Origin: an uncultured bacterium
Lineage (GTDB): Bacteria; Edwardsbacteria; CAYGWX01
Assembly (NCBI GenBank): GCA_964353855.1
Contig: CAYGWX010000001.1
Coordinates: 139,389-203,388 of the forward strand
DNA: 64,000 bases
Direction of reading: 5' to 3'
Position numbers and translations under genes: made by a program. Positions 536 to 61,398 of the stretch are shown here, one piece after another. Within the stretch, counting starts at the first letter, position 1. Each line of letters starts with the position of its first letter. Below the pieces are notes generated by a model, which was given only the letters and a program-made list of their open reading frames with translations, was not told the origin of the DNA and made no database searches.

Positions 536-1183
536 ATGGCAAAGGTAAGGTCGCCCCTGCACAGCATCGGCTTGCGGGGCCGGATGGCGGACGGGTTCGT
601 GTTCACGGAATGGCGGGGGATCAGCTGCATGCGAACCTTCGTGATGCCCAGCCAGCCCAGGACCCAGAGGAGAGAGCAGGTCTGGAAGACCACGCCTGTC
701 GTGACCCGGGCCTGGGCAGGCCTATCGGACCCGGAGAGAGCACAGTGGGACGCGTTCACACTTCTGGTCAAGCCGATAGACCCCACCCTGGGAAGGGAGA
801 GCCACTGGTCCGGGTACAACGCCTATCTCTCCGTGAACCGGGTCCTGGCCGACGCGGGGTTATCCCTGGTCATCCAGCCCCCGGGCATCCCCCAGCCCAA
901 TCCGCCGGAGAGGTTCAGACTCAGAAATCCAAGCCCGGGAGTCGTGCGCATCCGCTGGGAGCCACTGCCAGCAGGGACTTTGATAGACCTCTGGCTCAAC
1001 CAGGGCAAAGCCTCCCGCAAAGCCTACCCCTCCAAGTTCAACCACCTGGTCTACGCCGACGGCACCACCGGCCTCCATGTCCTCTCGGGAATCCCTGCGG
1101 GAACAAGGGTAGCAGTCAAAGGCCGGGTCGTAAGGCCCGACGGCGGAAAGTCGTACTACGCGCAAGCCGAGATCGTTGTCTAA
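536..1183 (+). CDS. Hypothetical basic protein, module protein copy 1 (N-terminus reminiscent of DUF6266-like proteins; beta-rich C-terminus)
   Basis: RBS AAGGAG; highly similar to 15789-16436 and clearly homologous to 43825-44466. Confidence 0.85.
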   Translation: MAKVRSPLHSIGLRGRMADGFVFTEWRGISCMRTFVMPSQPRTQRREQVWKTTPVVTRAWAGLSDPERAQWDAFTLLVKPIDPTLGRESHWSGYNAYLSVNRVLADAGLSLVIQPPGIPQPNPPERFRLRNPSPGVVRIRWEPLPAGTLIDLWLNQGKASRKAYPSKFNHLVYADGTTGLHVLSGIPAGTRVAVKGRVVRPDGGKSYYAQAEIVV

Positions 1184-1260: not shown

Positions 1261-1290
1261 TTGACAGCAGGCTTACCCTTCTGGTATAGT
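1261..1290 (+). promoter_or_regulatory. Sigma70-like promoter of putative ncRNA, copy 1
   Basis: TTGACA-N18-TATAGT, also at 16443-16472. Confidence 0.7.
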
Positions 1291-1296
1291 AAGGCC

Positions 1297-1440
1297 ACAA
1301 CAAGGCAGCCAAGGCTGGAGTCAGGCAAACCCGGTTGAGGAGGAAGCCTTAAAAGAATTAGACGCTGGAAGAGGCCCCGTTTCCGGGGCGGGTGAAAGAC
1401 AGCTAACATCACCCTATACTCAGCGTCCTTTTCTTTTCCC
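1297..1440 (+). ncRNA. Putative structured non-coding RNA, copy 1
   Basis: Stems GACGCTG/CAGCGTC, GCCCCG/CGGGGC, GGGTGA/TCACCC and AAGGC/GCCTT conserved with 16479-16620 while loops differ; pyrimidine tail; no conserved ORF. Confidence 0.6.
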
Positions 1441-1554
1441 CCGGCCCCCTCGAAACCCCGGTGTCCTGCGCCGTGACGGCTTAAACTAAATAAACAACCA
1501 AACCAACGGGGGCGGGGCATCGCGCCGCCCCCCGGAAAAGGAAAGGCCTCAAAA

Positions 1555-2187
1555 ATGCCTTGGTGGAGTTCAATCCCTTGGATTAAGTTACTTCCTCCCT
1601 TCTTAATGGTCGTGACTTCCTTGGTTAAGGAGGTTCTGCCCAAAGAAAGAAAGGTTTTTAAATATATACTCATACCTTTGCTGGTTCTATTCTTCCTTGC
1701 TACCGTGCTATTTATCGTTCAAGATCATCGGACCTCCATTGATTCAAAAAGGAGGGAATCAGAAGCCACCATCCAAACACATGCCGACCTCGATTCATTA
1801 AAGAGGCTATACGGCCCTATCGCAGAGATCGCCAAAGGCAAATATCCTAATTTAACAGACAAAAATGCCATTCTACAGCTTACAGCGAGAATCGAAGCAG
1901 CTGAGAAGGCTGCTAATCCAGCCCCTTTAGCAACTAGGCTTCGAGGGCTCCTTGAAGAAATTGACCCGAAAATAATCCCGGCGCTCAAGACAGGTCACAC
2001 TGGCTTTGAAGGCGGTATCACTGCATCACAGTTCACACGACTCCAGACAATTGCGAACGAAAGTGGGGCGAAGGAGTACATCAGGATCGATCCAGGGAGT
2101 GTGCGCATGGGCATCGGTATGGGCCCGGAGGGCGTGACATACAACGTAGCCTTCAAACTTAACCCCAAGTTATTACAGCAACCATGA
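1555..2187 (+). CDS. Hypothetical membrane-anchored protein (cargo, lower GC)
   Basis: 210-aa ORF, N-terminal hydrophobic helices, AT-rich codons. Confidence 0.65.
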   Translation: MPWWSSIPWIKLLPPFLMVVTSLVKEVLPKERKVFKYILIPLLVLFFLATVLFIVQDHRTSIDSKRRESEATIQTHADLDSLKRLYGPIAEIAKGKYPNLTDKNAILQLTARIEAAEKAANPAPLATRLRGLLEEIDPKIIPALKTGHTGFEGGITASQFTRLQTIANESGAKEYIRIDPGSVRMGIGMGPEGVTYNVAFKLNPKLLQQP

Positions 2188-2267
2188 CAAATGCTAAAAG
2201 AGCTAGCTGCTGGCCTGCGGGGCCACCTGCGGGTGGCCCTGGATAAGCCCAAAGAGGGAGTATCGCC

Positions 2268-3896
2268 ATGACAGAGACATATAAAAACTTGCTCTACTAC
2301 GGGGACAACCTGGATGTGATGCGGCGGCACATCAAGGAAGAGACGGTTGACCTCGTGTATCTGGACCCGCCTTTCAACTCCAATGCGAATTACAACGTCC
2401 TATTCGCGGAAAAAGATGGGAGCAAAGCCGCAAGCCAGATTCAGGCTTTTACGGACTCCTGGACATGGAACCAGGAAGGCGAATCCACATATGCCGAGAT
2501 TATGACTGCTGGGGGGCGCGTAGCCGATTGCCTTCATGCGTTCCGGACCTTCCTGGGCGAATGCGACATGCTGGCCTATCTTGTGATGATGGCCCCGCGC
2601 CTTGTGGAATTGCGGCGGGTCCTTAAGCCAACCGGAAGCATCTACTTGCACTGCGACCCGACGGCAAGCCACTACCTCAAGATGTTGATGGATGCGGTGT
2701 TTGGGGCGGTGAACTTCAGGAATGAGATCACGTGGAAGCGCACGAGCGCCCACAGCGACGTGGGACAAGGTGCCGTCCACTTGGGACGCATCCACGATAT
2801 TATCCTATGGTTCACGCGTTCTGACGCACCAGTTCGCAACCCGGTTCACCTTCCCTACTCGCCAGAATATATCGAAAAGATATTTCGGTACGTAGACGAA
2901 CACGGTCGGCGTTACCAGACCCAGCCGCTCCATGCGAAGCAACCAGGCGGCGACACTCGTTATGAGTGGAAGGGCCAGTATCCGCCGACAGGTCGCTATT
3001 GGGCGTTTTCAAGAGCGAACATGGAGAAACTGGATAGGGAAGGTCGCATTATCTACAGCAAGACCGGGGTACCCCGATACAAAATTTACCTTGATGAATC
3101 CGCGGGGAGACCGCTACAGGACCTCTGGGATGACATCAGCCCCGTCCACAATTCTCCGAAGGAACGACTTGGATATCCCACTCAGAAGCCCGAGGCGCTC
3201 TTAGAGCGCATTCTGGAACTGGGCAGCAACGAAGGCGATCTGGTGCTTGACCCGTTCTGTGGCTGCGGGACCACGATTGCCGCCGCGCAGAAGTTGGGCC
3301 GCTCGTGGATCGGGATAGACATCACGCATCTTGCCATTAACTTGATCAAGACCCGGCTCAAGGATTCCTTTGGCGAGTCCGCCGCCTACCAGGTGATAGG
3401 CGAACCCGTAAGCGTGGAGGATGCCGAACGGCTGGCCGAGTCCGAGCCATTTCAATTCCAATGCTGGGCGCTTGGTCTTGTGGGGGCCCGGCCCGGGGGT
3501 GAGCAGAAGAAGGGTGCGGACCAAGGCATTGATGGACGGATCATCTTCCAGGGGGAAAAGACAGGAACTTTTGAAAGCGTGATCCTGTCCGTGAAGGCCG
3601 GGCATACCGGAGTTGCACATGTCCGCGACCTGAAGGGCGTGCTGGAGCGGGAGAAGGCAGTGATCGGGGTCCTTATCTCGATGCAGGAGCCCACTGCACC
3701 TATGAGAACAGAAGCAGTCACGGCGGGATTCTACGAATCCGAAACCTGGGGCCAGAAATATCCAAAAGTACAGCTTCTCACTGTGGCCGAACTGCTGGCC
3801 GGGAAGAAGGTTGAAATGCCTCCGATCCGCCAAGTGAGCGCCACGTTCAAGAAGGCCCCTAAGGCGACGAAGAAAGGGGAGCAAGGGGTATTATAG
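2268..3896 (+). CDS. Amino-DNA methyltransferase (beta class) fused to C-terminal Mrr-like restriction endonuclease domain
   Basis: Motif IV DPPF, YPTQKPEALLERI, motif I DPFCGCGT; C-terminal DQGIDG...SVK resembles PD-(D/E)xK. Confidence 0.88.
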   Translation: MTETYKNLLYYGDNLDVMRRHIKEETVDLVYLDPPFNSNANYNVLFAEKDGSKAASQIQAFTDSWTWNQEGESTYAEIMTAGGRVADCLHAFRTFLGECDMLAYLVMMAPRLVELRRVLKPTGSIYLHCDPTASHYLKMLMDAVFGAVNFRNEITWKRTSAHSDVGQGAVHLGRIHDIILWFTRSDAPVRNPVHLPYSPEYIEKIFRYVDEHGRRYQTQPLHAKQPGGDTRYEWKGQYPPTGRYWAFSRANMEKLDREGRIIYSKTGVPRYKIYLDESAGRPLQDLWDDISPVHNSPKERLGYPTQKPEALLERILELGSNEGDLVLDPFCGCGTTIAAAQKLGRSWIGIDITHLAINLIKTRLKDSFGESAAYQVIGEPVSVEDAERLAESEPFQFQCWALGLVGARPGGEQKKGADQGIDGRIIFQGEKTGTFESVILSVKAGHTGVAHVRDLKGVLEREKAVIGVLISMQEPTAPMRTEAVTAGFYESETWGQKYPKVQLLTVAELLAGKKVEMPPIRQVSATFKKAPKATKKGEQGVL

Positions 3897-3953
3897 GTGT
3901 GATGATATACCTGTAGAGGCGGAGCCGCCCACGGGAAAACGAAGGAGCTAAAG

Positions 3954-4253
3954 ATGAAAGAAAAACTTCGAGGGATTGAAGAGCGCGAAGCAAAATGGGG
4001 CCAGAAGATGATAGAGGTTAAAGTGCGTTTCTGGACCAACGGCCTTGCTGTGGTAAAAGGCAATATAAAACCGATGTATGCAAAGGGTTCGGGAGTTGTA
4101 CGAATTAAGAAAAACCGAGCTCACGGCATAACGCCGGGGCGGCCCATCCATTTCAGGTCCTTAATGGACTTACCCGCAAAGATAGAGAAGCTCCTCATCC
4201 AAGAGGGTATTTTGATCCGTCGTAGCAGGCAGATGCACAAATATATCTCCTAA
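3954..4253 (+). CDS. Small basic hypothetical protein (cargo)
   Basis: 99-aa ORF with AAGGAG RBS. Confidence 0.6.
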   Translation: MKEKLRGIEEREAKWGQKMIEVKVRFWTNGLAVVKGNIKPMYAKGSGVVRIKKNRAHGITPGRPIHFRSLMDLPAKIEKLLIQEGILIRRSRQMHKYIS

Positions 4254-4305
4254 CAAAACACAAAGGACTTAAGGGTGAAACCCTAATGGACAAGAGGAGG
4301 TTACC

Positions 4306-13272: not shown

Positions 13273-14157
13273 ATGCCCATCCGGATCCAGGGAACGCCAT
13301 GGCCCAAGGAGATGGAGGTCTTCCTGCAGGAGACCAAGCGGCAGGCCTTCGTCTGCCTGACGCACATCGTCCAGCCCACGGTGGAGCTCCTGCTCGAAAA
13401 CCTCCCGCCCCGGGTGAAGCTCCGGGTGCTGGTCCGGATCGACAAGATCACCCTGCACGCCGAAAGCCTGAAGCGGCTCATCGACCGCCCGAACTGCGAG
13501 GTGCGGGTCCTGAAGAACCTGAACAGCAAGATCTACCTCCTGGACGGGGAGCTGGCGGTCTTGGCGGGCTCGAACCTGACCCGGGACGGGCTGGAGCACA
13601 ACGTGTCCTTCGACGTCGTGGTGGACGACCGCAAGGCGGCCGGGGAGCTCCTCGCCCGGCTGGAGCAGTACTGGAAGAATGCCGAGGAGGTGAAGGACGT
13701 CTCCGCGGCCCTCCAAAGCAAGAGCCAGGCTTACGGGGCCTGGGTGGACCCGCTCCGGGCCAAGGCCATCGAGTTCCTCTCCTACGAGGACGTGCTGGTG
13801 GAGAGGCTGCGGACCAAGCTCGCGGAGAACCCGGACGATGCCGGCTCCCATCGCCGTCTGGGCGACCTGCTCCGCATCCGGGGCGACCGGGTCGCAGCCA
13901 TGGAGGCCTACCGCCGGGCCCTGAGCCTGGATGAGGACCTGAACGAGGCCCGGGTCTCTCTGGCGAAGTGCCTCTGGGAGCACGGCGACCCGGAGCACTG
14001 CCTGGAGGAGGTCTTCGAGGTCCTGAAAAGGGACAAGGCCAACGCCGACGCCTACTACCTGTCCGCCATCGTCTATGAGAAGCGGGGGGAGGAGTCCATG
14101 GCCGTGGCCGCCCGCAAGGAGTACGAACGGCTGTCCGGAGGCAAAGCCTCGGCTTAA
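13273..14157 (+). CDS. PLD-like domain (degenerate HKD) plus TPR protein
   Basis: LNSKIYLLD...GSNLT resembles HxKxxxxD...GSxN; C-terminal TPR-like helices. Confidence 0.7.
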   Translation: MPIRIQGTPWPKEMEVFLQETKRQAFVCLTHIVQPTVELLLENLPPRVKLRVLVRIDKITLHAESLKRLIDRPNCEVRVLKNLNSKIYLLDGELAVLAGSNLTRDGLEHNVSFDVVVDDRKAAGELLARLEQYWKNAEEVKDVSAALQSKSQAYGAWVDPLRAKAIEFLSYEDVLVERLRTKLAENPDDAGSHRRLGDLLRIRGDRVAAMEAYRRALSLDEDLNEARVSLAKCLWEHGDPEHCLEEVFEVLKRDKANADAYYLSAIVYEKRGEESMAVAARKEYERLSGGKASA

Positions 14158-14222
14158 CAAGATAAGAAATGATCGATTTCCAGGGTCCTCTTACTAATCT
14201 GTCTAAGGGAGTTTAACCGCAC

Positions 14223-15350
14223 ATGGCTCATGCATATACCCCCGGTCTCCGCGTGACGGAACGCACCGTGCTCCGCAAGGAGCGCCGGCTTCCCCTCAAG
14301 GGCGAGGTGGTGGTCAAGGAGGGGCAGGAGGTCAAGGCCGAGACCATTGTGGCCAAGACCAACCTGCCGGGGTCGGTCCAGACCGTGAACGTGGCCGGGA
14401 TCCTGGGCATCCTGCCCGAGGACGTCTCCGAGTCCATGCTCAAGAAGGTCGGGGACCCGGTCGCCAAGAACGAGGCCATCGCCCAGAGCAAGGGGTTCTT
14501 CGGGCTGTTCAAGTCGCAGTGCAAGGCCCCGGCCGCCGGGACCATCGAGAACGTCTCCACGATCACCGGGCAGGTCATCCTGAGGGAGCCGCCCCTGCCG
14601 GTGGAGATCGCGGCCTACATCGACGGCAAGGTCGTGGAAGTCATCCCCCAGGAGGGGGTGGTGATGGAGACGACCGCGGCCTTCGTGCAGGGCATCTTCG
14701 GGGTGGGAGGCGAGACCACGGGCATCATCGCCATGGCCACGGACGACCCCAAGAGCGTGCTCAGCCCTGAGATGATCAAACCCGAGCACAAGGGCCGGAT
14801 CGTGGTCGGCGGGGCGTTCGTCACCTCCCCCTCCATCGCCCGGGGCATCGAGGTCGGGGCCAAGGCCATCGTGGTGGGCGGGATAGACGACGCGGACCTG
14901 AGGGAGTTCCTGGGCTACGACATCGGGGTCGCCATCACCGGCTCGGAGAAGAAGGGCATCACCCTGGTCATCACCGAGGGGTTCGGAAAGATGGCCATGG
15001 CCCACCGGACCTTCGACCTCCTCAAGTCCAAGCAGGGCTTGAAGGCCTCGGTGAACGGGGCCACCCAGATCAGGGCCGGGGTGATGCGGCCCGAGGTCAT
15101 CGTGCCGCTCATCGGAGCCGGCGCGGTCGCCCGGCCGGACGGCCTGGATGCGGTGCAGGGACTGACCGAGGGCAGCCCGGTAAGGGTCATCCGCGAGCCG
15201 TACTTCGGAAGGCTGGGAAAGGTGAGCGCCCTGCCCTCGGAGCTGCAGAAGCTGGAGACCGAGTCCCACGCCCGGGTCCTGGAGGTGGAGTTCGAGGACG
15301 GCAAACGGGCCATCGTCCCCAGAGCGAACGTGGAAATGATAGAAGGGTAA
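14223..15350 (+). CDS. Conserved hypothetical protein with barrel-sandwich-like motifs and KOW-like C-terminus
   Basis: VKEGQEVKAETIVA, KKVGDPVAKNEAIA, KAPAAGTIENV; C-terminal GSPVRVIREPYFGRLGKV. Confidence 0.85.
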   Translation: MAHAYTPGLRVTERTVLRKERRLPLKGEVVVKEGQEVKAETIVAKTNLPGSVQTVNVAGILGILPEDVSESMLKKVGDPVAKNEAIAQSKGFFGLFKSQCKAPAAGTIENVSTITGQVILREPPLPVEIAAYIDGKVVEVIPQEGVVMETTAAFVQGIFGVGGETTGIIAMATDDPKSVLSPEMIKPEHKGRIVVGGAFVTSPSIARGIEVGAKAIVVGGIDDADLREFLGYDIGVAITGSEKKGITLVITEGFGKMAMAHRTFDLLKSKQGLKASVNGATQIRAGVMRPEVIVPLIGAGAVARPDGLDAVQGLTEGSPVRVIREPYFGRLGKVSALPSELQKLETESHARVLEVEFEDGKRAIVPRANVEMIEG

Positions 15351-15368
15351 CACCAGACCTGTCATATA

Positions 15369-15399
15369 AAGGGGATGCCCCAAGGGCATCCCCTTGTTC
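15369..15399 (+). terminator. Intrinsic terminator
   Basis: aaggggatgccc-caa-gggcatcccctt. Confidence 0.7.
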
Positions 15400-15414
15400 A
15401 TTGGAATAAAAGGT

Positions 15415-15543
15415 CAACAAAGTTAACCTCCATTTTTTAAAAGACTTAGAGGTAGACTTTTAAAACCCAGCCCTCCTCAAAGCCACCCTCTTTAAAGCGT
15501 AACCCAAAGCAAACCAACATGCTGTACGAACACATCCCAAGGT
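15415..15543 (+). promoter_or_regulatory. Conserved leader of repeated module, copy 2
   Basis: Gap-free colinear with 118-246. Confidence 0.7.
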
Positions 15544-15653
15544 GGTCTCACGGTGTTCTGACGGTCTTCCGACGGTGTTCTGGCGGTATTCTGGCGGTGT
15601 TCCGGCGGTATTCTCGCGGTATTCAGGCGGTATTCCCGAGGTCTTCCCTCGGT
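15544..15653. repeat. 11-bp tandem array, 10 units, consensus nTTCnnnCGGT
   Basis: ggtctcacggt gttctgacggt cttccgacggt gttctggcggt attctggcggt gttccggcggt attctcgcggt attcaggcggt attcccgaggt cttccctcggt. Confidence 0.9.
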
Positions 15654-15788: not shown

Positions 15789-16436
15789 ATGGCAAAGGTA
15801 AGAGCGCCGTTACACAGCATGGACCTGCGGGGAAGGATGGCCGACGGGTTCGTGTTCTCGGACTGGAAGGGCATCCCCTGGATGAGGACCTTCATCATGC
15901 CCAGCCAGCCCAGGACCGCAAGGAGGGAAGCGATGTGGGCCACCTTCCCCAAGGTCAGTCGGGAATGGGCCAAGCTCACGGATTCGGACCGGACCAGGTG
16001 GGACGAGTTCGCCGTCCTGATCAAGCCCATGAACCACACCCTGGGACGAAAAGGCAACTGGTCGGGTTTCGACGCCTACGTGTCCATGAACACCGTCCTG
16101 GGAGACGCGGGACTGGCCCTCGTCACCCTGCCCCCGGCACTGCCCCTGCCCAACCCGCTGGAGAGGTTCAGACTCAGAAACCCAGCCCCGGGAGTCGTCA
16201 GAATAAGGTGGGAGCTGTTACCAGCCGGGACCCTCGTAGACCTCTGGCTCAACCAAACCAAAGCCTCCCGCAAAGCCTACCCCTCCAAGTTCAACCACCT
16301 GGTCTATGCCGACGGCACCACCGGCCTCCACGTCCTCACCGGAATCCCAGCCGGAATGAGGGTGGCCGTGAAAGGAAGGGTCGTAAGGCCGGATGGAGGA
16401 AAGTCGTATTACGTGCAGGCGGAGATCATAGTCTAA
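15789..16436 (+). CDS. Hypothetical basic protein, module protein copy 2
   Basis: 215 aa, colinear paralogue of 536-1183. Confidence 0.85.
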   Translation: MAKVRAPLHSMDLRGRMADGFVFSDWKGIPWMRTFIMPSQPRTARREAMWATFPKVSREWAKLTDSDRTRWDEFAVLIKPMNHTLGRKGNWSGFDAYVSMNTVLGDAGLALVTLPPALPLPNPLERFRLRNPAPGVVRIRWELLPAGTLVDLWLNQTKASRKAYPSKFNHLVYADGTTGLHVLTGIPAGMRVAVKGRVVRPDGGKSYYVQAEIIV

Positions 16437-16442
16437 CCCCCC

Positions 16443-16472
16443 TTGACAGGAAGCCCGCGCTTCTGATATAGT
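16443..16472 (+). promoter_or_regulatory. Sigma70-like promoter of putative ncRNA, copy 2
   Basis: TTGACA-N18-TATAGT. Confidence 0.7.
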
Positions 16473-16478
16473 AAGGCC

Positions 16479-16620
16479 ACAACAAGGCAGCCAAGCAGGG
16501 AGTCAGACAAACCTGGTTGAGGAGGAAGCCTTCAATGAATCAGACGCTGGAAGAAGCCCCGGAAACGGGGCGGGTGAAGAAGAGAAGCCATCACCCAACA
16601 CCCAGCGTCCTTTCCTTTGC
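16479..16620 (+). ncRNA. Putative structured non-coding RNA, copy 2
   Basis: Same stems as 1297-1440; loops GAAA vs TTTC and agaagagaagcca vs aagacagctaaca. Confidence 0.6.
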
Positions 16621-16749
16621 CCTGGTACTGCGGTTAGTCGGTTGGACAGTTGGGCGGTTAAACGGTAACGGCAAAGACTAACCAAGACAACAAGCAACCA
16701 AACAAAAGAGGCGGGGCTTCGCCCCGCCCCCCACGTAGGAGGGAAAACA

Positions 16750-17373
16750 ATGGCACGGTCAAATATTACGATTGAGGGTTTGAAAAACATAAGAGACCAA
16801 GTCGTTTTTGACCTGACAAATGCAGCACACATTGACAATGTGTTTTGGCAGATCCAAGCCATTTTTGAAAATAACCCCGAAATAAATACAGGCGGTATTT
16901 TTCAAGAATGGTTAGTGGATACTTACGTTGATTCAATTACTGTTCGACTTCGCCGCCTTGCAGATAAAGGAAAGAAGAAGATATCTTTATGGCGTCTTCT
17001 TGAAGATTGGAAACGAGACATCGAAAACATTAGGCCTAAGTCAGCAACTAAAGCTGAAATAACAGCTAAACAACAAGAATTAACTAATGCTTTAAATCGT
17101 GTTGAAAGCTATGCTAACTCTAACATAGCCCACCGCGCCCAGAAACCACAGGTTACTGAGCTAACTTATCTTGAGGTCCGCAAAGCTTTGATTTCTACTT
17201 TCAAGATATTTAATTGGTGTTCTTATTTGTTAACTAAATCCGTGTGGGCCACTCCTGTCCCATTGCTTGAGGAAAGTTGGCTTGCTATTTTCAAAGTACC
17301 TTGGCTTAAAGATTCGGCCCCTCCACCTTATAAACACCTCGATAAATTACTCAAGGAGGCTAATGATGGGTAA
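16750..17373 (+). CDS. AT-rich hypothetical protein, possibly AbiU2/HEPN-like (cargo)
   Basis: All-helical; LRRLAD...ISLWRLL and N..IAH resemble AbiU2-type HEPN proteins; much lower GC than flanks. Confidence 0.6.
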   Translation: MARSNITIEGLKNIRDQVVFDLTNAAHIDNVFWQIQAIFENNPEINTGGIFQEWLVDTYVDSITVRLRRLADKGKKKISLWRLLEDWKRDIENIRPKSATKAEITAKQQELTNALNRVESYANSNIAHRAQKPQVTELTYLEVRKALISTFKIFNWCSYLLTKSVWATPVPLLEESWLAIFKVPWLKDSAPPPYKHLDKLLKEANDG

Positions 17374-17470
17374 TGGTATGGTGGCAGCTTGGGGGCAGCG
17401 GTAACAAACCGGTCAGGCGGGGCTTCGTTCCGCCCCCCAAGAAATCCTAAAGCATAGGAGATAGTAAGAA

Positions 17471-33712: not shown

Positions 33713-33737
33713 CTCTTCGGGGAATGAAGACCACCGT

Positions 33738-33935
33738 CTGCGACGGACGGGCCTCCGTCTGGGGCGGACAGACCTCTCGCTGCAGCGGACAGACTTCTGG
33801 CTGCGACAGACAGACGTCTCGCTGCGACAGACAGACATCTCGCTGGGGCGGACAGACTTCTGGCTGCGGCAGACAGACGTCTCGCTGCGACAGACAGACG
33901 TCTCGCTGCGACAGATAGACCTCTCGCTGCGACAG
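33738..33935. repeat. 21-bp tandem array, 9 units plus partial, consensus CTGCGACAGACAGACnTCTCG
   Basis: Direct reading of units 33738-33926. Confidence 0.9.
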
Positions 33936-34049: not shown

Positions 34050-35675
34050 ATGAACTCCCCGACAGCGAAACAGCCAGAACTGCGCCGGGACGTCTCCATC
34101 TGGGGCTCCTATATGTGGGGCCAGGCCGACGTCGGTGCGGACATCTTCGCGGCTCTCGGCCTGGTTATGGCCGCGGCCCAGGGGGCGGCGAACCTCTCCT
34201 TCGCCCTGGCCGGGCTGGTTTACATCATGATCGGGCTGGCCTACACCGAGCTGGCCAGTGCCTATCCCGTGGCCGGGGGCGGGCAGTACTTCACCCTGCG
34301 CGGCCTGGGCGACTTCTGGGGCTATATCACCGGGGTGGCTCTGCTTCTGGACTACACGATAGACATCGCCCTGTTTTCCGTAGCCTGCACGGGCTACATA
34401 AACTTCTTCTTCCCAGCCGTGTTCGGACAGACGGCGGCGAGCTTCCTCGTCACCCTGGGACCTTTGAAGGACATCAACTGGGTCTGGTGCCTGGAATCCG
34501 TGGTCGTCATCGTGATCCTTTTGGCGTTGAACCTGCGCGGGATACGAGAGTCATCGCTGCTCAACGAGGTCATCGGCGTGGTCGGCATCTTGGCAGAGTC
34601 CGGGATCGTGATCATGGGCTTCCTGTTCGCCTGGCAGCCGGAGCTTCTGGCCCTACAGTGGAAGACGCAGTTTCCCACGCTCACGCAATTCATGTATTCC
34701 TCCTCGCTGGCCATCATCTCCTTCGTGGGCCTGGAGTCCATCTCCCAGGCGGCCCAGGAAACGAGGCGCCCGGCCACGGTCATCCCGCGGACCTCGGTGA
34801 CGCTCATCTTCACAGTGTTCATCTTCTCGGTGGCCTTCTCCACCCTGGGCCTGGGCATGCCCCTGGACCCGGCCCATCCCGGGGAATCCTGGAAGATCCT
34901 CGGGGCCGCCCAGGGCGAGTCCGTCGCCGTCCTGGCCAAGGCGATCCCCTACATCGGCATAATCGCCGGGCCCCTGGCCGCTTTGCTGGGCGCGGTCCTG
35001 CTGTTCATCTCGGCCAACTCCGGAATCATGAGCGCCTCGCGCCTGACCTATTCCATGAGCCAGTTCCACTTGCTGCCCCGCTGGTTCGATAAAGTCCATG
35101 CTAAGTTCCGTACCCCGGTGCGGACCATCGTGGTCTTCACCCTGATCGGGCTCGTCCAGACGGTCCTGGCCTTCCTATCCGGGGTGGACCCCAAAAACGG
35201 CCAGCCCCGGGCCCTGGAGATTTTGGGAAATATGTACGCCTTCGGGGCGACCTTGGGCTACCTCCTGGTGTTCATCTCGATCATCAAGCTGCGCTTCTCG
35301 GACCCCTACACTCCCAGACCCTACCGGATGCCGCTGAACATCCCCGTGCGTTACCGCGGACGGACCGTGGATGTTCCCATCATGGGGTTCATCGGAGCCC
35401 TGGGGGTGAGCTCGATCTTCTTTACCGTGATCTGGACTCACGCCATCGGCCGCATCGCCGGCCCGCTGTGGGTCCTGCTCTGGCTTGGCCTGTTCATTTG
35501 GTATCGCCGATACCGCAAGCTTCCCGTTCTCAAGAGCCTCCCGCGGGACTGGGAGCAGGAGCAGATCGCGGTGCTGACCTCGGCCGAGGAGTTCGATCTC
35601 CTGGAGCAGTACAAGCAGGCACTCCTGGAGCGGAACCGCCAGCGGGCAAAAGAAAGGGAGTTGGGTAAACGATGA
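34050..35675 (+). CDS. APC family permease
   Basis: GADIF, YTELASAYPVAGG, GLESISQAAQET, ~12 TM segments. Confidence 0.9.
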   Translation: MNSPTAKQPELRRDVSIWGSYMWGQADVGADIFAALGLVMAAAQGAANLSFALAGLVYIMIGLAYTELASAYPVAGGGQYFTLRGLGDFWGYITGVALLLDYTIDIALFSVACTGYINFFFPAVFGQTAASFLVTLGPLKDINWVWCLESVVVIVILLALNLRGIRESSLLNEVIGVVGILAESGIVIMGFLFAWQPELLALQWKTQFPTLTQFMYSSSLAIISFVGLESISQAAQETRRPATVIPRTSVTLIFTVFIFSVAFSTLGLGMPLDPAHPGESWKILGAAQGESVAVLAKAIPYIGIIAGPLAALLGAVLLFISANSGIMSASRLTYSMSQFHLLPRWFDKVHAKFRTPVRTIVVFTLIGLVQTVLAFLSGVDPKNGQPRALEILGNMYAFGATLGYLLVFISIIKLRFSDPYTPRPYRMPLNIPVRYRGRTVDVPIMGFIGALGVSSIFFTVIWTHAIGRIAGPLWVLLWLGLFIWYRRYRKLPVLKSLPRDWEQEQIAVLTSAEEFDLLEQYKQALLERNRQRAKERELGKR

Positions 35676-43824: not shown

Positions 43825-44466
43825 ATGTCAAAGCTAAAAAGTCCGTTTTTCGCCCGCGAGGCGCGCGGGAGGTTTGGTAAGGATTTGGTGTATTCCTCCT
43901 GGCGGGGGATACCCTATGTGAAGGTGTTCTATCCGGCTCGTCAGAAGGATTCCCCGCGTCAGCGCGAGGTGCAGGCGTCCTTTTGTAAGTTGAACCGGGA
44001 GTGGGCGGCCCTCACCGAGGCTCAGAGGGAGGCTTGGAGGGTTTATGCCGGAAGGCAGAGGGTGCCCAATTCCGCGCATTGTCTGTTCCTCTCCTTTGCG
44101 GTTCTGGCCCAGGATGCCGGGCTTTCTCTGCCGGTCCTGCCGCCCGGGGGCAAAGCTCCCCGCGCTCCGTATCTGGCCGTAGCTTCCGGTGAGGAACCCT
44201 GTTCCGTGGTCGTCTCCTGGTCTTTTACCAAGTCCCAGAAGATACCCAACTCAGCCCTTCTGGACCTCTGGTCCTGCATGACCCTGCCCTCCCGCCAGGC
44301 CTATCTGCATCATTTCACGCATCTGACCTACGTTCCGGCCGATGCCGGAAAAGCGGCGATAAATAACCTTCCGCTAAAAAGAAGGCCCCACTTCCGGGCC
44401 CGTTTGATCCTTCCCGACTCCCGCTCCTCTCCCTTTTCCAAGACTATCGGTGCTCCACAGTCGTGA
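43825..44466 (+). CDS. Hypothetical basic protein, diverged third homologue of 536-1183 / 15789-16436
   Basis: Shared K.KSP....RGR....V...WRGI, REWAALT...R..W, DAGLSL, DLW...SR.AY...F.HL.Y. Confidence 0.8.
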   Translation: MSKLKSPFFAREARGRFGKDLVYSSWRGIPYVKVFYPARQKDSPRQREVQASFCKLNREWAALTEAQREAWRVYAGRQRVPNSAHCLFLSFAVLAQDAGLSLPVLPPGGKAPRAPYLAVASGEEPCSVVVSWSFTKSQKIPNSALLDLWSCMTLPSRQAYLHHFTHLTYVPADAGKAAINNLPLKRRPHFRARLILPDSRSSPFSKTIGAPQS

Positions 44467-44467
44467 C

Positions 44468-44522
44468 GGGCTCTGAAGGGGCTCCAAATGGGCTCTAAAA
44501 GGGCTCTAAATGGGCTCTGGGA
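44468..44522. repeat. 11-bp tandem array, 5 units, GGGCTCynnnn
   Basis: gggctctgaag gggctccaaat gggctctaaaa gggctctaaat gggctctggga, starting 1 bp after the stop codon. Confidence 0.85.
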
Positions 44523-61279: not shown

Positions 61280-61398
61280 GGAAGGTGAGGAAGGTAACAG
61301 GAAGGTAACAGGAAGGGAACAGGAAGGGAACAGGAAGGGATCAGGAAGGGTTGTGGGCGTGCAGTGGGCTTACTCTGGGCGTCTGGCGGGCGTTCAAA
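61280..61398. repeat. 11-bp tandem array drifting from GGAAGGkAACA to GGGCkT-type units
   Basis: ggaaggtaaca x2, ggaagggaaca x2, ggaagggatca, ggaagggttgt, then in-phase gggcgtgcagt gggcttactct gggcgtctggc gggcgttcaaa. Confidence 0.8.

Follow-up and report, generated by a model that had tools for sequence, protein, structure and literature searches.

The 64,000-nucleotide (nt) stretch analyzed here, hereafter the window (contig CAYGWX010000001.1, positions 139,389 to 203,388 of the forward strand, assembly GCA_964353855.1, from an uncultured bacterium of the Edwardsbacteria), carries two copies of a real, previously undescribed and lineage-restricted leader motif. The element combines a promoter with ~150 conserved bases that hold a Shine-Dalgarno-like sequence, usually a start codon, a predicted three-way junction and a U-rich tail, and it stands in front of heterogeneous genes that point in the same direction. 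As far as sequence comparison can tell, this pattern supports a structured element that acts at the RNA level, has its own promoter and is not constrained by a protein product. By its predicted function, the element is best classed among cis regulators of the leader open reading frame (ORF) or attenuator type. Its parts within the window are the following.

1261-1290, forward strand: promoter of copy 1, from sequence and promoter score (-35 hexamer TTGACA at 1261-1266, 18-nt spacer, extended -10 element TGgTATAGT with its hexamer at 1285-1290)
1291-1360, forward strand: 5' half of the leader of copy 1, from alignments
1361-1427, forward strand: three-way junction of copy 1 (helix P1, 1361-1368 with 1420-1427; P2, 1374-1379 with 1384-1389; P3, 1390-1395 with 1409-1414)
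1428-1440, forward strand: U-rich tail CTTTTCTTTTCCC, directly 3' of P1 in copy 1, from alignments
16443-16472, forward strand: promoter of copy 2, from sequence (TTGACA at 16443-16448, TATAGT at 16467-16472)
16473-16622, forward strand: leader of copy 2, from the alignment and covariance model R1 (ATG at 16535-16537; P1, 16543-16550 with 16602-16609; tail at 16610-16622)
16535-16681, forward strand: leader ORF of copy 2, 48 codons plus stop, running through P1, P2, P3 and the tail and ending in variable sequence

Copies, distribution and promoter

The two window copies (1257-1440 and 16439-16622) are 83% identical, in agreement with an earlier note on this DNA that had described ~140 conserved nt in two copies. 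The rest of the 2.8-Mb genome (120 contigs) adds one copy on contig C74 and one on contig C47, and a covariance model, R1, was built from these four genomic copies. A pattern scan of metagenome contigs returned 35 loci, among which R1 confirms 12 copies on 11 loci; the remaining 24 are unrelated, mostly coding sequence. The resulting 16 copies (4 genomic and 12 metagenomic, the latter on 11 contigs) differ from one another by 5-20% (80-95% alike), with copy 2 scoring 180.7 bits to R1. Every true metagenome match comes from a sediment-type assembly. One metagenome contig, L077, carries the leader twice (45-203 and 1584-1746, both on the reverse strand and separated by 1.4 kb that include a TPR gene). 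Of this pair, the upstream one is the most divergent copy (86.8 bits), and a 2-nt insertion after P1 shifts the frame of its leader ORF.

The element appears confined to this lineage. R1, a model of four sequences with which 150 candidates were scored per genome, finds only the four known copies as real matches across all 19 genomes of the phylum, leaving the 18 other genomes without the element; the two best foreign matches prove false on reading, one being a lysine-rich gene tail followed by a terminator and the other a coding region. A pattern based on the 5' motif has no match in viral contigs, and a second pattern finds 38 loci in 185,579 species genomes (one representative each), none of which is confirmed by R1. 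The earlier note's failure to recognize a known RNA family is likewise borne out. Rfam 15 gives no match anywhere in the window at gathering thresholds. At E values up to 10, positions 1200-1560 yield only a 7.4-bit chance match to a long non-coding RNA model, and at E values up to 1, four other loci yield only an unrelated 25.7-bit match outside the element.

The promoter proposed earlier, TTGACA-N18-TATAGT, scores 11/12 in copy 1 and carries a TG two bases upstream of the -10 hexamer. Wherever upstream sequence is available (14 copies), both hexamers, TTGACA and TATA(G/T)T, are invariant, and the spacer of 17 to 18 nt varies. Fixed hexamers around a variable spacer are the pattern expected of a working promoter, as judged from sequence. 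C-runs at both borders of the element were considered as recombination scars and rejected, CCC before TTGAC being common at promoters genome-wide.

A conserved three-way junction and a U-rich tail

The leader begins with the stretch AAGGCCACAACAAGG, whose 15 bases are identical in the four genomic copies and vary in several metagenome copies. A variable middle follows, and then the Shine-Dalgarno-like GAGGAGGAAG (1337-1346 in copy 1). The 3' domain is predicted to form a three-way junction. In copy 1, GACGCUGG (1361-1368) pairs with UCAGCGUC (1420-1427) to form P1, a helix of 8 base pairs (bp), six of them G-C, which closes the hairpins at 1374-1389 and 1390-1414. The GACGCTGG/(T)CAGCGTC helix thereby encloses GCCCCG-4 nt-CGGGGC (P2, loop 1380-1383) and GGGTGA-13 nt-TCACCC (P3, loop 1396-1408).

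Several results support this fold, which the earlier note had drawn in the same way. Firstly, minimum free energy and centroid predictions for copy 1 both give the three-way junction. Its 72 nt reach -31.7 kcal/mol, compared with -19.9 ± 3.7 kcal/mol in shuffled sequences (z = -3.2; 1 of 200 shuffles as stable), and the whole 144 nt give a folding z of -2.7. Secondly, the junction is kept in both consensus folds, one from 4 sequences and one from 14 sequences in an alignment that was not fitted to the model. Finally, variation among the 16 copies falls where the fold would tolerate it: within the 3' domain, changes are seen in 5 of 40 paired columns, as opposed to 28 of 31 unpaired columns (Fisher p = 2.9e-11), and minor alleles occupy 7 of 640 paired and 110 of 496 unpaired cells. 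The invariance of the stems claimed earlier thus largely stands, whereas the accompanying claim of equal loop lengths does not, the P3 loop measuring 13 nt in 14 copies and 10 nt in the other two (L077a and L084) through a 3-nt, in-frame deletion. Coding cannot explain the conservation of the 3' strand of P1 because this strand is invariant though it is read in two different frames among the copies. The junction strands and loops vary around fixed stems, and the aligned sequences give no sign of a conserved ligand pocket.

For the 5' half, no fold is claimed, since model-fitted and free alignments give different helices, each with uncompensated breaks. Two pairings put forward in the earlier note, AAGGC/GCCTT and CAGCC/GGTTG, are likewise not borne out: they occur in the single-sequence fold of copy 1 and are broken without compensation in other copies.

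The U-rich tail, also noted earlier, follows P1 in 16/16 copies. It is TTTGCTTT-like, with at least 5 T per 8 bases within 2 nt of the stem in 15 copies; the tail of L096 reaches 4. Homology between copies ends exactly there, at …TTTGCCCC.

A conserved initiation region without a conserved peptide

The sequence GAGGAAG is invariant in all 16 copies and is followed ~9 nt later by an ATG in 15 of them. Copy 1 is the sole exception, with AAG at 1353-1355 in place of the start codon. The earlier note had contrasted an ATG in copy 2 with its absence from copy 1 and had concluded that no peptide is conserved; copy 1 turns out to be the outlier, yet the conclusion about the peptide is correct. The ATG lies 5 nt before the 5' strand of P1 (6 nt in copy 2), and 14 of the 15 leader ORFs pass the 3' strand of P1, crossing P1, P2, P3 and the tail over a length of 35 to 60 codons. 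One leader ORF is fused in frame to the next gene, and the ORF of C47 stops at codon 10.

The encoded peptides commonly begin M(N/K/D/I)QTLEEAPETGRVK. Among codons 1-15, the variable columns number 4 of 15, 5 of 14 and 3 of 14 at codon positions 1, 2 and 3, respectively, showing no third-position bias. The strand between P3 and P1 (J3/1) changes length by non-multiples of 3, so the 3' strand of P1 and the tail are read in two frames (…PSVLCFA… or …QRPLLCP…), and one divergent copy is frameshifted after codon 6. The ends of the leader ORFs are set by unrelated downstream sequence. On this comparison, the translation-initiation region and the RNA fold are conserved and the amino acids are not, and the leader peptide is, by the same measure, not under selection.

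Downstream genes and a variable slot

The gene that follows the element is co-oriented with it in all 13 assessable copies, or in 14/14 if L077a is counted, where the contig ends 44 nt past the element and the gene start is the same as in L084. Between P1 and the next start codon are 31 to 150 nt. The gaps of 31 nt in L078 and 45 nt in C74 place the ribosome site almost against the tail and leave no room for another promoter, so these genes would be transcribed only through the element. In half of the copies, other conserved modules occupy the 95 to 150 nt between the element and the next gene. The corresponding features of the window are the following.

1508-1533, forward strand: GC hairpin GGGGGCGGGGC-ATCG-CGCCGCCCCCC, preceded by a CA-rich tract and closely followed by the ribosome site of the first cargo gene of copy 1
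1555-3896, forward strand: cargo of copy 1, a 210-amino-acid protein with no family match (1555-2187) and a methylase-nuclease fusion (2268-3896), from Pfam
16630-16733, forward strand: module of copy 2 ahead of the AbiU2 gene, made up of GGTTAGTC-like repeats of 8 bp, a CA-rich tract and a GC hairpin whose core is 16710-16728
16750-17373, forward strand: cargo of copy 2, an HEPN_AbiU2 protein (Pfam PF18734, E = 2.7e-9)

The product of 2268-3896 matches N6_N4_Mtase (1.3e-46), NA-iREase1 (2.1e-9) and Mrr_cat (2.2e-5) and joins an N6/N4 DNA methylase to an Mrr-like nuclease domain. Genes downstream of other copies encode BNR or DUF5122 propellers, a Trypsin_2 protease, GIY-YIG with DoxX, a TPR protein and several proteins without a family match. 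That these genes are unrelated speaks for a module of general expression or regulation and against a metabolite sensor.

The space after the tail is filled in different ways. In C74 and L078, it holds only the ribosome site of the next gene. L096 has a 95-nt module alone, consisting of 8-bp repeats, a CA-rich tract and a GC hairpin. Copy 2, L087 and L099 have the 95-nt module, one to four cargo genes and a second hairpin, and L084 has cargo and then a hairpin. The far side is a conserved gene for a secreted propeller or BNR protein, preceded by a GC hairpin and GGAAGAA…GATAGGAGGA. When L084, L087, L099, L086, L096 and L002 are compared with the window (1441-4305 and 16623-17470), the gene content between the leader and the propeller or BNR gene is wholly different: either no gene at all, or AbiU2, a methylase-nuclease fusion, a trypsin-like protease, GIY-YIG with DoxX, or small unnamed ORFs. 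Because content differs in this way between close relatives, the leader appears to head a slot with cargo turnover, that is, a hotspot.

A near-identical GC palindrome (GGGGCGGGGC, 4 nt, GCCCCGCCCC) recurs at ~9 loci, with a core of ~19 nt that reaches up to 26 nt with flanking runs. The hairpin module seen in copy 1 is present at several genomic loci and also on metagenome contigs. Its sites include 1508-1533 and 16710-16728 in the window, L105 648-664 and 1973-1989, L106 591-607 and 1190-1206, L107 1340-1356 and L110 5697-5713. The palindrome usually follows a CA-rich tract and directly precedes GGAAGAAA, a ribosome site and the ATG of unrelated genes, and in two places (contig C22, 648-1989; contig C96, 591-1206) two hairpin copies bracket a single gene. 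It could mark the edge of a mobile gene unit or be a hairpin that stabilizes or processes mRNA. Of 42 ORFs around the loci that were scanned against Pfam, none matches a recombinase or integrase family; the whole genome was not scanned for integrases.

Two further repeated features were noticed. A second portable promoter module, TTGACAA-N17-TATAAT with shared flanks, is found in the same neighborhoods, where it stands before a DUF4160/DUF2442 pair and before a restriction-modification pair; its sites are upstream of the RNA in L002 (contig C74), at ~4310-4547 of L109 (contig C11) and between the 215-amino-acid gene (see below) and the RNA in L103. At 33728-33935 of the window, about ten tandem copies of a 21-bp unit (GACAGACGTCTCGCTGCGACA) occupy an intergenic region before a gene at 34050.

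A proposed cis-acting promoter-leader module

The earlier note had offered two possibilities for the RNA: a partner of a neighboring protein, treated below, or an attenuator controlling cargo genes. The evidence favors the latter, given the co-orientation of the next gene in 13/13 copies and gaps as short as 31 to 45 nt. We propose that the element is a cis-acting promoter-leader module whose terminator-like junction can be overridden by a translating ribosome, a proposal that we judge to have about an even chance of being correct. Under this proposal, a strong sigma-70-type promoter would drive a ~145-nt leader, and any gene placed behind it would share its transcript. Three parts would make up the leader, namely a 5' part, an initiation region (GAGGAGGAAG, ~9 nt, AUG), and the terminator-like junction with its U-rich tract. 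With no ribosome behind the polymerase, the junction would form and transcription would end or attenuate, leaving a short RNA of ~145 nt. A ribosome starting at the leader AUG would instead sit on the 5' strand of P1 and block the junction, and transcription would then enter the downstream genes. Where the leader ORF ends beside the next start codon, translation may also be handed on. It would be the act of translation that matters, and not the peptide. The ribosome-gating step, taken by itself, is held more tentatively and judged less likely than not.

Several observations weigh against the proposed module. The 9 sequencing runs listed, all with small shares, include no RNA run that contains the sequence, and the start, end and termination of the transcript are predictions. 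Among the copies, P1, P2 and P3 are without any compensatory change, and the helices rest on the conservation pattern and on folding energy; the six deviating junction cells are all uncompensated (two in P1, two in P3, one A-C and one G-U). The earlier note had held that a lack of covariation among additional copies would refute the idea. Covariation is indeed lacking, but it neither proves nor refutes the junction, since helices in copies only 5-20% diverged do not vary at all. The copies may also be recent duplicates, and part of the conservation may reflect youth alone. As a terminator, the structure is atypical, its 'loop' consisting of two hairpins, and a simple terminator scan calls none here. 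The junction persists in copy 1, which has no ATG, and in C47, which stops at codon 10, in keeping with an RNA that acts independently of translation. Finally, seven copies lack the additional modules. In five of them the leader ORF terminates 8 to 17 nt ahead of the next start codon, in one the two overlap, and in one the ORF is fused in frame to the next gene; selection for translational coupling is nevertheless not supported, because frame +2 stays open about as far.

A broader and quite improbable version of the proposal is that the leader is the fixed 'expression head' of a lineage-specific, integron-like gene-slot system without a known integrase. A portable promoter and translated leader would then drive anything inserted between the U-rich tail and the recurrent GC hairpin. 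The leader ORF would act like ORF-11 of integrons, and the junction would serve as a ribosome-gated terminator that silences new cargo in the absence of active translation. The context of this idea includes defense genes (restriction-modification and AbiU2) beside the 215-amino-acid family, framed by 11-bp repeats.

If the proposed promoter-leader module is real, it would be a portable unit joining a promoter, a translated mini-ORF and a branched terminator before unrelated accessory genes, including anti-phage genes. It would show in a concrete instance how genes newly acquired by an uncultured lineage are expressed, and perhaps gated, and would be a natural counterpart of the integron Pc/attI1/ORF-11 arrangement outside integrons. 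Its importance would be lesser if the element is just a recently duplicated 5' untranslated region (UTR), and the finding is confined to one family-level lineage of sediment bacteria. The surroundings may prove the more interesting part of the locus, with their 215-amino-acid family, helical-turn repeats, hairpin-framed genes and cargo turnover.

Alternative explanations and the 215-amino-acid protein family

The same features could belong to a stand-alone, trans-acting small RNA (sRNA) of ~145 nt, possibly with a dual function, which would start at its own promoter and end at P1 and the U-rich tail, with the co-oriented downstream genes expressed by read-through or independently. We consider this unlikely, although the strong promoter, the terminator-like 3' end and the exact stop of homology at the tail are what such an RNA would show, the fold survives in copy 1 and C47 despite their lost or truncated ORFs, and other modules fill 95 to 150 nt before the next gene in half of the copies. 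The downstream genes fit it poorly, since all 13 assessable ones are co-oriented and those of L078 and C74 begin so close to P1 with no other promoter, and a conserved Shine-Dalgarno sequence with ATG is unexpected in a pure sRNA. No target was found either. The earlier note had suggested the 13-nt P3 loop as a specificity element, an idea that finds no support here: the mean longest complementary match of the loop to its own downstream region is 6.08 nt, compared with 5.99 nt for the downstream regions of other copies, and 13-mer complements in the 2.8-Mb genome do not exceed the ~11 expected by chance, with none at a start region (imperfect or short seeds were not modeled).

A second alternative holds that the element is conserved mainly as DNA. 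It would be the fixed left border, with an outward promoter, of a variable gene slot whose content is swapped by recombination through flanking homology or the GC hairpins, as in an integron platform, and the RNA fold would be incidental or secondary. The wholly different content between the tail and the next conserved gene, ranging from nothing (C74) to one to four unrelated genes, is in keeping with such a border, as are the hairpin-bracketed single genes on C22 and C96 and the leader ORF stop that is supplied by the variable part, as for ORF-11. Four points make it improbable: the 42 ORFs scanned include no match to a recombinase or integrase family; the hairpins, as short perfect palindromes of G and C, would equally suit roles in mRNA stabilization or termination and occur upstream of core-like genes for secreted proteins; the C-rich runs at the borders are a general promoter feature of this genome; and the contrast between stems and loops is predicted by an RNA fold and is not required of a DNA border.

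A third alternative, raised in the earlier note, makes the element the partner RNA of a 215-amino-acid protein, either within a ribonucleoprotein or as an RNA that guides or regulates the protein. Two genes of this family lie upstream of the window copies.

536-1183, forward strand: 215-amino-acid gene preceding copy 1, outside the RNA element itself
15789-16436, forward strand: 215-amino-acid gene upstream of copy 2, 75% identical to the first

The promoter of copy 2 begins 7 nt past the stop codon of the second gene. The earlier note had placed the RNA directly after each 215-amino-acid gene, which is true of these two and not of the family at large: the third window paralogue (43825-44466) has no such RNA. 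The genome holds 28 matches to the gene (3 in the window and 25 elsewhere, with 24-93% identity among aligned members), and the RNA is missing at 26 of them, including close ones with 84-93% identity. Conversely, 2 of the 4 genomic RNA copies follow a 215-amino-acid gene, and on metagenome contigs two more follow one and another follows a gene remnant. Overall, 4 of the 12 copies with enough upstream sequence directly follow the gene, a member of the closest subfamily, and one more follows the remnant. Adjacency is far above chance and is not obligatory.

The family is as restricted as the RNA, neither being found in the 18 other genomes of the phylum. Outside this genome, it is represented only by 93 clusters of unnamed metagenome proteins, and its look-alikes in the ESM Atlas are unnamed, with some clusters mostly viral. 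The protein has no match in Pfam, NCBIfam or PHROG. Its structural model (predicted local distance difference test score 81.8, predicted template modeling score 0.73) begins with a disordered basic segment, continues with three helices and ends in an FN3-like sandwich, and Foldseek searches of PDB and BFVD return FN3 domains only. The modeled structure shows no nucleic-acid-binding fold, and nothing in it points to RNA binding. Despite the shared lineage and the excess of adjacency, a partner RNA is therefore very unlikely, with 8 of the 12 assessable copies lacking the gene upstream and 26 of 28 genomic gene matches lacking the RNA.

The surroundings of the paralogues have features of their own. 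Tandem repeats of 11 bp, about one helical turn, occur in 5 to 8 copies at 247-331, 15541-15647, 44468-44519 and 61288-61350 and in the flanks of many paralogues. They differ in sequence from locus to locus and are found immediately before the promoters of the paralogues or immediately after their stop codons. Shorter units of 7 to 8 bp are repeated in 5' UTRs (409-440) and behind the leader RNA (16630-16671). These repeats may be phased protein-binding sites or curved DNA. The second 215-amino-acid gene, with its array of repeats, is divergent from a 415-amino-acid ORF on the reverse strand (14154-15401) that has no Pfam match. Contig C11 carries one more paralogue, with a methylase gene and the gene of an Eco29kI-type nuclease behind it.

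That the leader ORF is itself the product, with nucleotide conservation reflecting coding, is highly improbable: the Shine-Dalgarno sequence and ATG in 15 of 16 copies, the common N-terminus M(N/K/D/I)QTLEEAPETGRVK and the in-frame deletion of 3 nt in the P3 loops of L077a and L084 would fit a small protein gene, but the variable columns (4, 5 and 3 by codon position) are not concentrated at third positions, two frames are used for the C-terminal half, single copies have a stop at codon 10, no ATG, or a frameshift after codon 6, and unrelated sequence sets the ORF ends. Retron, guide-RNA (IS110, IS605) and toxin-antitoxin RNA assignments were dropped, the required neighbor gene being missing among the ORFs scanned.

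Comparison with known systems

Trans-acting sRNAs are recognized by a seed complementary to their targets and ribonucleoprotein RNAs by obligate co-occurrence with the protein gene; the 13-mer and P3-loop comparisons found no such seed, and the element adjoins the 215-amino-acid gene in 4 of 12 assessable copies. Another general class is that of sRNAs derived from 5' UTRs by premature termination, for which the same DNA could yield a short terminated RNA and a read-through mRNA. The element differs from these in that neither the 13-mer search of the genome nor the P3-loop comparison found a target for it.

Three-way-junction riboswitch aptamers with a terminator platform share with the element the 5' leader position, the three-way junction and the U-rich tract after the closing helix. 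Unlike these, the element has no Rfam match even at E values up to 10, and its Shine-Dalgarno sequence and AUG lie inside it. Its junction helices show no covariation, and the genes behind it have no function in common.

The class 1 integron platform (Pc, attI1, ORF-11, ORF-17, ORF-18) offers a parallel at the level of gene organization. Here, too, a fixed promoter-leader precedes a slot for variable genes, and a short ORF with a canonical initiation region crosses the border. For ORF-11 of attI1, the part of PMC8876359 that treats it reports that the initiation region matters, that the amino acids hardly do, and that the inserted cassette supplies the stop codon. The differences are considerable. 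The adjacent integrase that marks an integron is not among the 42 ORFs scanned here, and the recurrent hairpins are short GC palindromes, which we take to be unlike attC in size and form. Most cargo genes here have their own ribosome sites, and the leader ORF, taken here as 35 to 48 codons long, spans a stable RNA fold.

The logic proposed for the element is that of attenuators of the pyrBI type in E. coli. In the portion of PMC4824070 that concerns it, the pyrBI terminator is described as lying inside a 135-bp leader-peptide gene, and a closely following ribosome is said to repress intrinsic terminators. The two arrangements share a promoter-proximal leader with its own Shine-Dalgarno sequence and AUG, an ORF that runs through a terminator-like helix and U-rich tract, a peptide whose sequence is unimportant, and downstream genes on a shared transcript, which for the present element is predicted. 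Unlike pyrBI, the putative terminator here is the closing helix of a three-way junction rather than a simple hairpin, termination itself being predicted; neither a U-rich pause region nor a nucleotide-sensing logic is evident; and the downstream genes are heterogeneous accessory and secreted-protein genes rather than those of one pathway. One feature of leader-ORF attenuators, a Shine-Dalgarno sequence and start codon of their own close behind the promoter, is present in the element.

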